From positions 1-57,903 of the IMG/VR virus record IMGVR_UViG_3300017828_000001: DNA of 57,903 bases; one strand, given 5' to 3'. This DNA is from a virus (lineage: Duplodnaviria > Caudoviricetes). Below, piece by piece: positions 41,885-47,015 of the stretch. Each line of letters begins with the position of its first letter. Within the stretch, counting starts at the first letter, position 1. The translations under genes were made by a program, and so were the position numbers. The notes under the pieces are model-generated. The model saw only the letters and a list, made by a program, of their open reading frames with translations. It searched no databases and was not told the origin of the DNA.

Positions 41885-41916
41885 ACAGAATTATTACGGA
41901 TTAGAGCAATAAAAGA

Positions 41917-42621
41917 CTATCGGTACTCTTCGGGCCACTTATATTCAAAGTCTGGTAACGGTTCACCCATGTAGTCCCATAGTTTTGGTGAGTCTTCTAC
42001 TGTCCAATAAACAATACCATATCCAGAGTAATTATTTTCTCGTATGTCGTAGTTTGATGGTTCTGGCAAACCAAGGTCAGTAAAATATTTTGAAATTTTT
42101 TCTGTATTTTCTATTTCATTAGAAATTCCTATTGATATTCTTCTACCATCTTTTTCATAACACCCATCTCCAACATACCAGTGTTTCAACACTGTTGGAG
42201 TTAATTCTATATCTTCGGGCCACACTTTTTTACCGCTCTCATACCATTCACGGAACTGATTAAATTTCGGATGTGACCTTGTTCTCCAAATAAATATGTC
42301 AGAGTAATTTTCCTCTTTTGCGTTCGGTCTAAAACCGTTTTTCTTATTCATTTTAACACTTTCAGCAGCAGTTTGTTCTAATGAAACACCAGTAGATAAA
42401 CAACCAAAAACATTATCTAAATATTCAAGATAGTTTGGACTAATCATTTCCACCATGAGACGTTTATTCTTACCATTTTTATTAATCCAACCATCACCCA
42501 TAAGAACGCCAGTTGTTATTTCAATCTGTTTTTGCGTGAGTTTTGGTCTATGTGAAGGTGAACCATTCCAGTGCATACCAATGCGCTTATACTTGTCACC
42601 ACATTCAGGACACTTGACCAT
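41917..42621 (-). mobile_element. Free-standing LAGLIDADG-type homing endonuclease with N-terminal zinc finger
   Basis: CPECG..HW, ITTGVLMGDG, LKHWYVGDG; AT-rich, basic; start moved to MVKCPECG. Confidence 0.85.
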
Positions 42622-43433: not shown

Positions 43434-43617
43434 TCATCATCACTTCCAACTGGTGTTTCGTCGTACTCTTTTTTCTCGTCAAGTGTTTCAACAATAGTGT
43501 CCTCGTCTTCAGCCTCGTCAGAAACTTCACCAATTGCGCCGCTGTTCTCAAGCTGTTCTGTGATTTGGTCAGTATCGTCTGCCATCAAAATACATTAGCA
43601 GTCGAAGCTATAAAAAA

Positions 43618-44091
43618 CTATTGGAAACCTCTACCGCTTTCTTCGTGATCGTACTCTTCAGTCATTGGATTAGCACCCGCCATCATGTTAGCAATCTCAC
43701 TTTCATCGAGATGTTCGTCTAACACCTCCATCCGCTCGTCAACTGTTTCCGCATCTTCCATTTCTTCCTCAAGTTGTTCGTATTTTTCAATGTCGTCCAT
43801 CCGCTGTTCAAACGCTTCAGCAATGTCGAGATCATATTCACTTCGGAGAGACCCCAACGCAAGCAACACATCAACAGCGTCTTTGGTCAGCATTTTCTGT
43901 TTGTCTGGACTGTAGTCAGTGTCTTCGGCCTCAGCGACACGACAATTGACAAGTGTCTGAAGCAAATCCGAAGCGGTGTTCACAAGGAGTTCTGCACCAT
44001 GATTGGGTATTTCACCATCGAACTCTTCGTCTTCGTACTGGACTTTTTCATCAACAAACTCAAACATCTCTGTTAACGTTAGTTCCGACAT
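43618..44091 (-). CDS. Degenerate MazG-fold protein
   Basis: KDAVDVLLAL...DLDIAEAFEQRM resembles the MazG C-terminal helices but lacks the ExxE motif. Confidence 0.5.
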   Translation of the reverse strand: MSELTLTEMFEFVDEKVQYEDEEFDGEIPNHGAELLVNTASDLLQTLVNCRVAEAEDTDYSPDKQKMLTKDAVDVLLALGSLRSEYDLDIAEAFEQRMDDIEKYEQLEEEMEDAETVDERMEVLDEHLDESEIANMMAGANPMTEEYDHEESGRGFQ

Positions 44092-44163
44092 TACAAACTT
44101 TAGTAGGAACTACTGGCTTATAAATATTCCGACTAAAATCGCAGAATTAGAATTAGGGGCTTC

Positions 44164-44196
44164 TCAGCAGAGTGAGAAGCCACAGCCAGCACTACA
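44164..44196 (-). pseudogene. Orphaned 3' end of the zinc-ribbon minigene
   Basis: Reads CSAGCGFSLC-stop immediately after the endonuclease stop codon; 9/10 aa match the end of 44951-45052. Confidence 0.8.
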
Positions 44197-44916
44197 TCAC
44201 CTATACTTTTCAGGCCACTTATATTCAAACCCGTCTAACGGTTCTCCCATATATTCCCATAATTTTTCTGAATCATCAACTGAAAACCTCAGAACCATAC
44301 CTTCTCCAAAATCTCTCTCATAATGAGTGAGTGAAGGTTTAGGCAAACCCGAATCTACAAAATACTTTTTTACTTTTTCTCCATTCTCTGACTCATTGAA
44401 AGCAGATATTGTTATATAGTTACTTCCTGATTTATAATTAGCGCAACCATCCCCTACATACCAGTGTTTCAATACAGTTGGTGTTAATTGTATGTTATCA
44501 GGCCATATCTTCTCACCACTTTTATACCAGTTATGTAGATTAGTAAAGTATGGGTGTGTTTTTGACTCCCAAATATATTGATCTTGATAGTTTTCTTCTT
44601 TTGCATTTGGGCTGAAACCACTATCCCTGTTTTCTTTCGCTTTTTCTTCAGCCGTTTTTGAAATAGAGACCTTACTTGAAACAATATCAAAAGAATCGTA
44701 TAGATATTCAAGATATTGTTTTGCTACCATTATACACCGTATTTTACCCGTGTTTGATGGTGTGAGATAAACGTTCCCATCACCCATCAATAAACCCGTA
44801 GCTATTTCTTTTTGTTTTTCTGAAAGCGGTGGATATTCACAAGATGAAGAACGTGCCCAATGTTGGGCCAAACCTTTGTACTTTCCACCACACTTTGGAC
44901 AAACTTCTTTACCCAT
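44197..44916 (-). mobile_element. Free-standing LAGLIDADG-type homing endonuclease with N-terminal zinc finger
   Basis: CPKCG..HW..C, IATGLLMGDG, LKHWYVGDG; paralogue of 41917-42621; start moved to MGKEVCP. Confidence 0.85.
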
Positions 44917-44950
44917 ACTATTATTAATGTATGAAAAGGTATAAAAGCTT

Positions 44951-45052
44951 TTATCCGCAAAGCGAGAAGCCGCATCCAGCAACGCATCGGACACAGCCTT
45001 CCATTTGACATAGCTCTGCACCACAGTCAGGACATTGGTTTAGGTGTGACAT
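44951..45052 (-). CDS. 33-aa Cys-rich zinc-ribbon microprotein
   Basis: MSHLNQCPDCGAELCQMEGCVRCVAGCGFSLCG; ACTACTAATAG motif upstream. Confidence 0.75.
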   Translation of the reverse strand: MSHLNQCPDCGAELCQMEGCVRCVAGCGFSLCG

Positions 45053-45080
45053 TGGGTGTACTATTAGTAGTGTCTGTAAT

Positions 45081-47015
45081 CTATTTCAAGTCCTCTACAA
45101 GCAGATATTTGTGCCCATCTTTCTGCCCTTCATCATCGACTTGGAACACTTCGTGTTTACGCAGCTTCGCAACCGAGTTCTCTATCTTACTCTCCACTTG
45201 GCCGTTTGATACATCACCCCATAGTGGATTCGACGCATCGAGAATCGTGTTGGTGATGTCTTCGGAGTCTCGTGGTCGTTCAGCACGCACGTATCGCAGC
45301 CCTCTGTCGTCGGTGTAGTATTCAATCGGACTAATGCCGAGCATGTGAGTCAAGCCGAGTGAGTCAATGTCTTCGGGCGTTGTCCGACAGTCGTCAATGG
45401 CGTCTTGAAGGCTCTCACAGACGCGCTGATCGACTTCTGTCCACTCCACGTCCTCACCACCATCATCAGAACCAAACGCACTGAGGCCGCCCTCAGCGTC
45501 GTCTGAGCCAGATGACGGTTCGCCAGCATCAATGGGGTCATCGCCCATTAGGTCATCAACGGTGGTGCCACTAAGTTCTTCACGCATGTCGGCAACCGTC
45601 TCAGCAATCGGCTGGTCACGAATGGGGTCTGTCACATCACTGAAGAGCTCCTCGTAGATCGCTAAGTTCGGGTGGCCGAAGGTGTTGCCGCCGAGGAACT
45701 CATAGAGGTGGGCACCGTTCGGCCCTTCTCCTTCGTGGACTTCAATGAGGTAATCCTCTTCCATCTGGTCGAGAATGCCGTTGTCTCGTTGGTTGGTTAG
45801 TTGGGATTTTGACGGTGTTGTAATGTTGGCATATTCGTCAATGTATTCACGAATGTCCATATGCGTGGCCTGCATACCGCCATTCGGCCCCATTCCACCG
45901 ACACCATTGATGTCATCTGTAAGGGCCTCAATGACAGCAAGTTTCTGTTCGTTCATGTCGTGGGTGACGGCCAACAGTAGATCGCGGTAAGCGAGAACGT
46001 TACCCACGTCTTGTGGATCAGCGACGTAGTGAGTGACGCCATTGATTTCCATTGTCTCTCGATTGTGGTAGTTCAGCCGCGTCCACGCCCGAATGTGGTT
46101 AAATATCGCTTTGGCACCACGTTTCGACTGTGTTTTCTTGTAGCTAAGAATGTCATCAACCACTTTGAAACAGTCCCACCCATACGTATCGTTGTCAGTG
46201 ACGCTTACAGGCCACTCAATATCCTCGTCGTGGGGTATTACCACTGGATACGAATAGCCGTTTTTGGGGTCTTCATCCCACAGTGGGTCAAGTGGTCGTG
46301 GAATATTACTGATATGATTACGAACAGCATCTTTGCCATCATCAAAGTTGAAGTTGTATTCGTAATCTCTATCCTTTACTTCAACTTCTTTGTGGTCGGC
46401 CATCGTCTTCGCCACAGCCCGATTAATGTCTTGATCAGACTCCACCCGAATCTCCATCTGCCGTGTACGGAGTTCTTTTGGAATTTCTGAGTTGTTTTCA
46501 TCAGCAAACAAGAACACCGTTGGCATTGCCTGTTTTTCAATTTCTTTACCCTCCCGACCACCATCACCATCATCAACGTTCCGAGTGTGGGTAAAGCCAA
46601 CACCATCTTCGTTTGCATCGTCACCGCTACTGGACTTAACCATTTCCAACATCTTGCCTTGCATCTGTTGGAACTCTGCAAAGGCACCGATGTATTTTTC
46701 ATCCCACATATCTGCATCAACCATCCCCATGTCAGATGTGGAACCAGTGCGAAGCAGCCAGTGTTTCGGCCAAACACCATCAACATTTTGTTTGACCTCT
46801 GTCTTGCCCTCACCGCTTTTACCCTTCACAACAAGTTGAATGTACTCGTCTGGTTCTATTGATAATCCACTGGAATAGGCCGCATTGACCGCAAGGAATT
46901 GCGATTCATTACCGATCATTTCGCTCCGAATCACGTCAACCAAGTTTTCAGCGATGTTATCAGCTACACTATAGTCTGGTGATGTTTTGTCATCAACCTC
47001 TATCTCAAATGCCAT
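45081..47015 (-). CDS. P-loop ATPase, probable replicative helicase
   Basis: Walker A GKSGEGKT, Walker B-like AFAEF, Arg-finger-like ELRTR; located in the replication module. Confidence 0.7.
   Translation of the reverse strand: MAFEIEVDDKTSPDYSVADNIAENLVDVIRSEMIGNESQFLAVNAAYSSGLSIEPDEYIQLVVKGKSGEGKTEVKQNVDGVWPKHWLLRTGSTSDMGMVDADMWDEKYIGAFAEFQQMQGKMLEMVKSSSGDDANEDGVGFTHTRNVDDGDGGREGKEIEKQAMPTVFLFADENNSEIPKELRTRQMEIRVESDQDINRAVAKTMADHKEVEVKDRDYEYNFNFDDGKDAVRNHISNIPRPLDPLWDEDPKNGYSYPVVIPHDEDIEWPVSVTDNDTYGWDCFKVVDDILSYKKTQSKRGAKAIFNHIRAWTRLNYHNRETMEINGVTHYVADPQDVGNVLAYRDLLLAVTHDMNEQKLAVIEALTDDINGVGGMGPNGGMQATHMDIREYIDEYANITTPSKSQLTNQRDNGILDQMEEDYLIEVHEGEGPNGAHLYEFLGGNTFGHPNLAIYEELFSDVTDPIRDQPIAETVADMREELSGTTVDDLMGDDPIDAGEPSSGSDDAEGGLSAFGSDDGGEDVEWTEVDQRVCESLQDAIDDCRTTPEDIDSLGLTHMLGISPIEYYTDDRGLRYVRAERPRDSEDITNTILDASNPLWGDVSNGQVESKIENSVAKLRKHEVFQVDDEGQKDGHKYLLVEDLK

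Follow-up and report, generated by a model that had tools for sequence, protein, structure and literature searches.

A LAGLIDADG endonuclease gene between two diverged copies of a microgene 3′ end in a haloarchaeal tailed virus

Gene arrangement at the endonuclease locus

The window analysed in this study is a complete metagenomic virus record of IMG/VR (IMGVR_UViG_3300017828_000001; 57,903 bases; estimated completeness about 90%), and the element in question lies on its minus strand between positions 45052 and 44164, where the gene of a LAGLIDADG endonuclease is placed between two copies of the 3′ end of a very small cysteine-rich gene, hereafter the minigene. On that strand, the end of a gene for a 644-amino-acid (aa) protein at 45081 is followed by a 28-nucleotide (nt) spacer, the minigene, a 34-nt spacer, the endonuclease open reading frame (ORF) and a second gene end. 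An initial annotation of this DNA, made from the letters alone, had described a homing endonuclease that invaded the minigene and supplied a recoded replacement of its 3′ end; the codons it quoted for the two gene ends are all present on the minus strand within the features listed here.

45052 to 44951, minus strand: intact minigene, 33 codons plus TAA (ORF list; alignment of five alleles; ratio of non-synonymous to synonymous differences, pN/pS)
44951 to 44988, minus strand: upstream copy of a 38-nt imperfect direct repeat (repeat search, family D2)
44917 to 44950, minus strand: 34-nt spacer with a TATA-like TTTTATA at 44946..44940 (sequence)
44197 to 44916, minus strand: gene for a free-standing, double-motif LAGLIDADG endonuclease, 239 aa plus TGA (Pfam PF03161, alignment, model)
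44161 to 44198, minus strand: downstream copy of the 38-nt repeat, holding CSAGCGFSLC and a stop codon at 44196..44164 (repeat search)
44092 to 44163, minus strand: intergenic flank of ancestral type, ending before the ATG of the following gene (aligns to the flank in the relative L007; contig of sequencing run X1)
44091 to 43618, minus strand: gene for a 157-aa acidic protein, next after the flank
41917 to 42621, minus strand: paralogous LAGLIDADG endonuclease gene, 234 aa, 50.6% identical; context, outside the duplicated structure

Duplicated 3′ end of the minigene

The second gene end, CSAGCGFSLC with its stop, directly follows the endonuclease TGA and runs in the endonuclease frame for 10 codons plus the stop codon. 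It lacks a start codon and is presumed from its sequence to be an untranslated, dead relic. When it was compared with the end of the minigene product (CVAGCGFSLCG and stop), 9 of the 10 residues were identical; five codons showed synonymous third-position changes, one codon (GTT/AGT) differed at two positions, and the endonuclease TGA was aligned with the CGA of minigene codon 22. At the DNA level, the two ends form a direct repeat of 38 nt (44161–44198 and 44951–44988) that is 76% identical, with a start-to-start spacing of exactly 790. The upstream copy spans the last 2 nt of codon 22, codons 23–33 and the stop codon, and thereby completes the intact minigene, while both copies start (codons 22/23) inside the second CxxC knuckle of the encoded protein.

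The likeness of the two ends was assayed against chance by comparing, in all frames, the 300 nt upstream of the endonuclease start with the 150 nt after its stop. The best 10-residue match was 9/10, whereas 100 shuffles of the downstream stretch gave 6 at most.

Between the copies, 5.0 of 7.0 synonymous sites differ, vs. 2.0 of 23.0 non-synonymous sites, and 23 of 30 nt are shared, while natural alleles of different viruses share 15–24 of 30. Because the differences are almost only synonymous and the identity falls within the between-virus range, the two gene ends are, on this comparison, evidently diverged alleles from different lineages that were brought together, and not a fresh duplication in situ. 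The initial annotation had further proposed that recoding protects the repaired allele from the enzyme. This was not secured: the divergence is that usual between alleles and suffices to account for the recoding.

A duplication in situ, in which the insertion would have duplicated 38 bp by target-site duplication or slippage and the downstream copy would have drifted as junk, agrees with the direct repeats at the exact ends of the inserted element. However, the concentration of differences at synonymous sites is unexpected for a drifting copy (a binomial estimate gave about 0.045 for at least five of seven differences at third positions), and the fragment carries no frame-breaking change although its synonymous sites are near saturation. 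No transposase was found in the 790 bp by the ORF list or Pfam. Further, the overhangs left by LAGLIDADG enzymes measure 4 nt, too short for a duplication of 38 bp. An origin of this kind is considered highly improbable.

The LAGLIDADG endonuclease and its family

The endonuclease ORF extends from an ATG at 44916 to a TGA at 44199..44197 and encodes 239 aa. Its assignment to the homing endonucleases in the initial annotation was confirmed, as residues 37–189 matched Pfam PF03161 (LAGLIDADG_2) at 52.1 bits against a cut-off of 25 (expectation value, E, of 9.6e-14), and the predicted structure is I-SceI-like. In detail, the two motifs read GLLMGDG and HWYVGDG, in which D46/G47 and D156/G157 are conserved without exception in the 8 family members aligned. 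The motif aspartates lie at the ends of helices 33–44 and 146–156 of an AlphaFold model (predicted local distance difference test score, pLDDT, 91.5; predicted template modelling score, pTM, 0.89). Among solved structures, 118 chains matched this model at E ≤ 0.001, and the best match was I-SceI (E 5.8e-10; template modelling score, TM, 0.64–0.71); I-WcaI (TM 0.69) and I-DmoI (E about 3e-6) were also found. A phmmer search of the endonuclease against PDB sequences returned nothing at E ≤ 0.01. These results indicated, at the level of sequence and predicted fold, a monomeric two-motif LAGLIDADG homing endonuclease, and its ORF is whole and looks active. With I-SceI, the endonuclease of a yeast mitochondrial group I intron, the viral enzyme appears to share the monomeric two-motif fold, while the sequence identity is 16–18%; unlike I-SceI, the viral enzyme is not intron-borne and carries an extra N-terminal CxxC...H...C segment.

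The endonuclease gene is AT-rich, with a GC content of 0.33–0.39 vs. 0.44–0.57 in the flanks, and the cassette looks foreign in composition. The TTTTATA of the 34-nt spacer is centred about 27 nt before the endonuclease ATG and is presumed to be the enzyme's own promoter, giving a leaderless transcript. The paralogue (GC 0.31–0.36) lies 2.3 kb away and has no flanking duplication. Because the spacers before the two endonucleases are alike, with the likeness starting right behind the stop codon of the upstream gene, the basic cassette would consist of promoter plus ORF.

In public metagenomes the family is well represented and large, with 314 proteins at E ≤ 1e-10 out of 516 candidates. The other family members were also intergenic wherever annotation or ORF lists were examined (the paralogue, gene 50 of HGTV-1 and the gene of VOLN27B).

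Selection on the minigene and its endonuclease-free alleles

The minigene product is a protein of 33 aa, MSHLNQCPDCGAELCQMEGCVRCVAGCGFSLCG, followed by a stop codon. The 644-aa protein encoded before it (47015..45081, minus strand) yielded no Pfam match at E ≤ 0.1; its homologues are 28% identical in the haloarchaeal tailed viruses HATV-2 (gp68) and HGTV-1 (gp124), and 63–73% identical in three IMG/VR contigs. Because of these homologues, the source of the window is taken to be a haloarchaeal tailed virus.

Four distinct endonuclease-free alleles of the minigene were found in distant relatives (L005, L006, L007 and L011), each directly after a homologue of the 644-aa gene. All four have 32 codons and end in CGFSLC and a stop. 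The alignment of the five alleles has 18 invariant columns, including C7, P8, C10, G11, C20, C23, C27 and C32, and pN (0.10–0.29) was far below pS (0.49–0.96) in 10 of 10 allele pairs by Nei-Gojobori counts. Because of this, the minigene is judged to be under strong purifying selection, and hence to be a real gene of 32 or 33 codons, in agreement with the suggestion of the initial annotation that the tiny target is conserved. A 32-codon cysteine-rich gene that is missed by most gene callers is thereby flagged as real, selected and conserved within one group of haloarchaeal tailed viruses.

The cysteines of the minigene product are spaced CPxCG ... CxxC ... C ... C, and because of this spacing a zinc-ribbon-like microprotein is suggested. 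One of five fold models reached a pLDDT of 85.4, the other four 52–56, and a fold search against PDB found no match at E ≤ 0.001. The protein has one canonical CP(D/E)CG (residues 7–11), while its second knuckle, C20-x-x-C23, is followed by V, A or S and not by G. The strict definition of haloarchaeal C(P)XCG zinc-finger micro-proteins, as given in PMC11241148, asks for two such motifs and does not cover the minigene product. Despite its single canonical motif, the protein may work like a zinc ribbon.

Besides its additional codon, the window allele departs from the others over codons 15–22 (44987–45010, minus strand), which read LCQMEGCVR vs. (L/I)AFIEGCE(R/K) in the four distant alleles; a Val replaces the otherwise invariant Glu21 just before the repeat. 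The departure may be a co-conversion tract, a change linked to immunity or simple divergence. As a separate observation, the 644-aa gene is kept beside small cysteine-rich genes in HATV-2 (gp68), HGTV-1 (gp124) and four IMG/VR relatives.

Removal of the 790 bp restores a gene of 32 codons, the length of the four distant alleles, and archaeal rRNA introns often carry LAGLIDADG genes. Both points would suit a spliced element, with the fragment as the true second exon and the 790 bp as an intein or as an intron of group I, group II or archaeal bulge-helix-bulge type. Nevertheless, the endonuclease frame differs from the minigene frame with stops intervening, the upstream copy already ends the minigene with its own stop, and the ORF takes up all but 70 nt of the 790. 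An Rfam E-value scan of 43500–45600 found no intron family; its sole match, at E 0.94, was to a snoRNA model. Between the junctions, 6 bulge-helix-bulge-like pairings were counted vs. a mean of 8.8 in 200 shuffles, which makes them no commoner than in shuffles; the junction duplex energy was −27.0 vs. −28.8 ± 3.9. On the frame, the stops, the Rfam scan and the bulge-helix-bulge results, the intron and intein readings were rejected, and the probability left to a spliced element is close to nil. The view of the initial annotation that homing proceeds here without intron or intein agrees with these results.

Endonuclease-free alleles in close relatives

Closer relatives were represented in four runs, X1–X4, of one hypersaline-lake study. 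These runs contain relatives of the virus only (word share 0.07–0.09), in short contigs of 85–99% identity, and up to 30 non-matching letters are visible for each contig. In one X1 contig, 44157 and 44970 are separated by only 22 letters, which makes the net deficit exactly 790 bp. In gene direction this contig gives ...FSLCG and a stop, behind which comes the flank found after the downstream fragment in the window; a loose end of X3 at 44970 reads like this joint. Another X3 contig joins 44095 to 45045. Further, record 20 of X3 and record 26 of X4 match 44951–45137 with 17 differences in 187 nt and no gaps, ending exactly at the minigene stop.

The lack of any uninterrupted allele had been named in the initial annotation as an outcome that would speak against homing; such alleles exist in the four distant relatives and, closer to the window, in X1. 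Because four distant alleles are empty and the X1 contig lacks a net 790 bp, the locus appears, from these sequences, to show a presence/absence polymorphism, as for a homing element.

With related strains at 85–99% identity coexisting, a metagenome-assembled record, and no listed contig spanning the whole stretch, an assembler could have joined a contig ending in the endonuclease to the minigene end of another strain. However, the two copies have no exact word longer than about 9 nt in common and no repeat family lies at the junction of endonuclease stop and fragment, so that a k-mer false join is unlikely; moreover, the repeat spacing of 790 bp agrees exactly with the net deficit of the X1 contig. 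We therefore hold an assembly chimera for a very improbable source of the structure.

Many further contigs of X1–X4 on 44200–44990 are short, cover conserved blocks of the endonuclease only, and jump between them (44229 to 44446, 44587, 44775 and others). Because the short contigs cover and jump between conserved blocks in this way, they indicate, as far as such contigs can be read, many diverged copies of the endonuclease family in the same hypersaline-lake communities.

Proposed origin of the arrangement and possible direction of import

The flank on which the fragment stands was compared with those of the distant alleles. The 72 nt between fragment and next gene align to the L007 flank with a score of 15, vs. 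a shuffle mean of 4.7 (standard deviation 2.0). Because none of 300 shuffles reached this score, the downstream fragment is taken, on the alignment, to adjoin the ancestral flank. For the sequence behind the upstream copy, no alignment to the L007 flank was obtained (112 of 300 shuffles reached its score). The comparisons of the flank behind the fragment with those of L005, L006 and L011 were not significant (146, 135 and 128 of 300 shuffles), these flanks being too diverged. A weak signal between the spacer behind the upstream copy and the L011 flank (9 of 300 shuffles) is regarded as compositional.

On balance, and with moderate confidence, we read the locus as a 790-bp homing cassette that sits at the 3′ end of a conserved microgene, between two diverged allelic gene ends, and that would home in the manner of the mobile ORFs (mORFs) of fungal mitochondria. 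The arrangement could have arisen by double-strand-break repair or recombination between two viruses with different minigene alleles. For a broken allele, the repair template would have been the genome of a virus with another allele and, next to it, the cassette; one side would have been resolved by homology within the minigene, and the other at the short microhomology GATG, which is common to codons 22/23 and to the endonuclease stop/fragment junction. During mixed infection, the enzyme would cut endonuclease-free alleles in or next to the minigene 3′ end, and the break would be repaired from the endonuclease-bearing genome, with the 5′ part of the minigene as left arm and the relic plus flank as right arm. 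The cassette would thus be copied into the recipient while the microgene is kept whole.

On which end arrived with the endonuclease, the evidence is split, and 30 nt are too few to decide it. Import of the upstream end, the mobile-ORF direction and the view of the initial annotation, is given slightly less than an even chance. It requires no more than a donor in which the cassette lay, as is usual, in the intergenic space behind the donor's own gene, and it is supported by the fragment, which has the SLC-stop ending of all four distant alleles and adjoins the ancestral flank. Import of the downstream fragment is rated distinctly lower, as a possible but rather unlikely course, and is supported by the observation of an empty recipient of the upstream type with the right flank (X1). 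The remaining probability is assigned to import of both ends or of neither. Of the claim that the endonuclease supplied a replacement 3′ end, the completion of the gene by the upstream end stands, while the import of that end was not secured, since close endonuclease-free relatives already carry an end of the upstream type; within this clade it is the downstream fragment that stands out.

The reverse direction was weighed on the same evidence. The minigene would then be the clade's own allele, the cassette would have been inserted just behind its stop, the position also seen in other family members, and the 33-nt fragment would have hitch-hiked with the endonuclease from another virus, whose gene end lay behind the enzyme's gene, so that the "replacement" end would be no replacement. 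The endonuclease-free contigs of close relatives, whose match to the window starts at 45137 and breaks off precisely with the stop codon at 44951, agree with this, and so do the X1 joint and X3 loose end with ...FSLCG, stop and the same flank. Further, the paralogue and the genes of HGTV-1 (gene 50) and VOLN27B are intergenic, the paralogue cassette starting right after the upstream stop, and over codons 23–27, where the X1 contig aligns to the upstream copy, 5 of 15 nt of the fragment deviate from that copy. In contrast, the reverse direction requires a donor whose microgene was interrupted at codon 22/23, either broken or already duplicated, which moves the question one step back; the fragment ends in SLC and a stop, as do all four distant empty alleles, and runs on into the ancestral flank; and the supporting X-run contigs are short, with at most 30 non-matching letters visible. 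We regard the reverse direction as a serious but less than probable account, well below an even chance.

Several further points weigh against the homing-cassette reading. The end carried by the close endonuclease-free relatives is of the upstream type (Gly33 plus stop), and over 30 nt neither end of the window is clearly nearer to the empty alleles, the upstream end sharing 16–23 of 30 and the downstream end 17–24 of 30 with the four of them. The endonuclease/relic junction rests on one assembled metagenomic record, and no X1–X4 contig, these being short contigs of relatives only, was shown to bridge it. The nearest non-self relative of the endonuclease is only 63% identical (a fragment of 196 aa) and the rest are at or below 54%, with no sign of a very recent spread.

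A second endonuclease-bearing allele was not found in IMG/VR, JGI metagenome contigs or GTDB genomes, collections that are sparse for this virus group. The search used the endonuclease and the locus of the 157-aa protein in IMG/VR, and degenerate minigene patterns in all three collections. In IMG/VR, 4 of 4 pattern matches were true in one scan, and 4 true and 5 chance matches made up the 9 of another. Three matches in JGI metagenome contigs comprised two of the L007 allele, one of them probably from the same contig, and one by chance; the single match in GTDB genomes was by chance.

The flanking duplication was also absent from all eight other family loci screened (1 of 9 with this locus). 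For the paralogue, HGTV-1 gene 50, VOLN27B and HVTV-1 gene 143, the best matches were 5–6 of 10 and 18–96 of 100 shuffles were as good, and for the IMG/VR loci L024–L027 the match was 5 of 10, with 76–86 of 100 shuffles as good. The screen left out HCTV-5 gene 82, HRTV-7 gene 85, the Bacillus phage matches, and additional places in HGTV-1 (3) and HVTV-1 (2). Because 0 of 8 loci show the duplication, it may be a one-off by-product and not part of a propagating unit. By these sequence comparisons it does not appear to be a habit of this endonuclease family, and for a general strategy there is no second example among the loci screened.

A further-reaching interpretation is offered tentatively and is, in our estimate, rather doubtful: the microgene 3′ end, promoter and LAGLIDADG gene together might form a self-propagating archaeal-virus cassette that invades the conserved zinc-ribbon microgene between its third and fourth Cys ligand, repairs the damage with a cleavage-resistant end of its own and uses the displaced native end as right homology arm. 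If true, it would be the first mobile-ORF-type element outside organelles, and a selfish endonuclease would drive partial replacement of a viral protein between virus lineages.

Comparison with known mobile endonuclease genes

The initial annotation had pointed to fungal mitochondrial elements that repair their target gene by carrying a duplicate of its end, and the architecture of the viral locus, an ORF between two C-terminal copies of which the upstream one completes the gene, does match the one described in PMC3630166. That study reports endonuclease ORFs preceded by an inserted C-terminal end and followed by the native one in Glomus sp. atp6, atp9, cox2 and nad3, and summarises the mobile ORF of Allomyces macrogynus atp6. 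As in the viral locus, the fungal ORFs, mostly LAGLIDADG, lie in the 3′ part of a gene, an in-phase upstream C-terminal copy completes that gene, a second, diverged copy stands behind the ORF, and ORF-less alleles occur in relatives (PMC3630166). The nucleotide identity of the fungal copies is 64–81%, compared with 76% over 38 nt here, and in both cases the copies differ mainly at the DNA level. For Glomus atp9 the lengths are 51 nt (inserted end), 786 nt (ORF) and 52 nt (native end), similar to those of the viral element.

Unlike the fungal elements, the viral one is hosted by an archaeal tailed virus and not by a mitochondrion, targets a microgene of 32 or 33 codons, and is known from a single instance. 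Its ORF is no in-phase extension of the gene but is read in a separate frame, set off by a stop, and carries a TATA-like promoter. While the fungal downstream copy is described as native by sister-species comparison (PMC3630166), the same comparison was undecided here or pointed the other way.

The haloarchaeal tailed-virus LAGLIDADG genes HGTV-1 gene 50, HVTV-1 gene 143, HCTV-5 gene 82, HRTV-7 gene 85 and that of VOLN27B belong to the same protein family, being 27–45% identical over 91–98% of the query. They are free-standing and in part AT-rich, like the gene in the window, while HGTV-1 gene 50, the VOLN27B gene and HVTV-1 gene 143 have no duplicated gene end, unlike the locus studied here. 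The free-standing endonucleases of T4-like phages spread by break repair with co-conversion of neighbouring sequence, and their mobile DNA keeps the neighbouring gene functional, a likeness to the viral element. The T4 mobA/gene 60 arrangement keeps its gene working by ribosomal bypass and not by a second gene end, and we know of no duplicated gene end beside free-standing endonucleases of T4-like phages. The T4-like enzymes belong to other families (GIY-YIG, HNH); their genes, like the viral one, lie between genes with expression signals of their own. They comprise Seg and Mob, known for "intronless homing", and the mobA/gene 60 cassette of T4 (10.1101/2022.08.31.505936). Homing endonuclease genes are described as abundant in HVTV-1 and HCTV-5 (PMC3950731).

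No description of a duplicated gene end beside a homing endonuclease in an archaeal virus or phage was found, in a search outside which most subscription journals fell. The arrangement has so far been described mainly in fungal mitochondria and is found here in a virus of haloarchaea, so that the "endonuclease plus spare gene end" architecture can arise in an archaeal virus too. This suggests that the architecture is a general outcome of homing between diverged alleles and not a peculiarity of organelles. The locus also offers a small test system for the questions of where a free-standing LAGLIDADG enzyme of an archaeal virus cuts and what makes its own genome immune: the enzyme has 239 aa, the candidate target spans about 100 bp, and two types of empty allele occur naturally.

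Minor features of the endonuclease loci

A motif, CTAATYC-N(0-6)-TAATTCTG, occurs at two sites of the window, 44142–44156 and 41886–41904 (minus strand), each shortly behind an endonuclease gene. It has 2 matches in the window and none in any of 100 shuffles, the pattern having been built from those two sites. As evidence of a common target it was rejected, as an unbiased local alignment of the downstream stretches was equalled in 208 of 2000 shuffles and the pattern is post hoc. The upstream gene ends of the two endonucleases showed no significant likeness (660 of 2000 shuffles), nor did the downstream fragment and the end of the 153-aa gene (222 of 2000). A similar stretch precedes the homologue of the 201-aa gene in the endonuclease-free L005.

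The paralogue sits between the genes of 153 and 201 aa. At this interval L005, L006 and L007 have one to three small genes (27–106 aa), which the window is without.

The 21 nt ending at the endonuclease start codon (44916–44936) are 81% identical to 45059–45079 in the spacer before the minigene ATG (repeat family D20), and this likeness may be a common 5′ signal or chance. Lastly, absent from the window and from L006, an extra gene for 108–119 aa stands between the minigene and the homologue of the 157-aa gene in three of the four relatives (L005 6253–6612, L007 4343–4687 and L011 4184–4510, minus strand).

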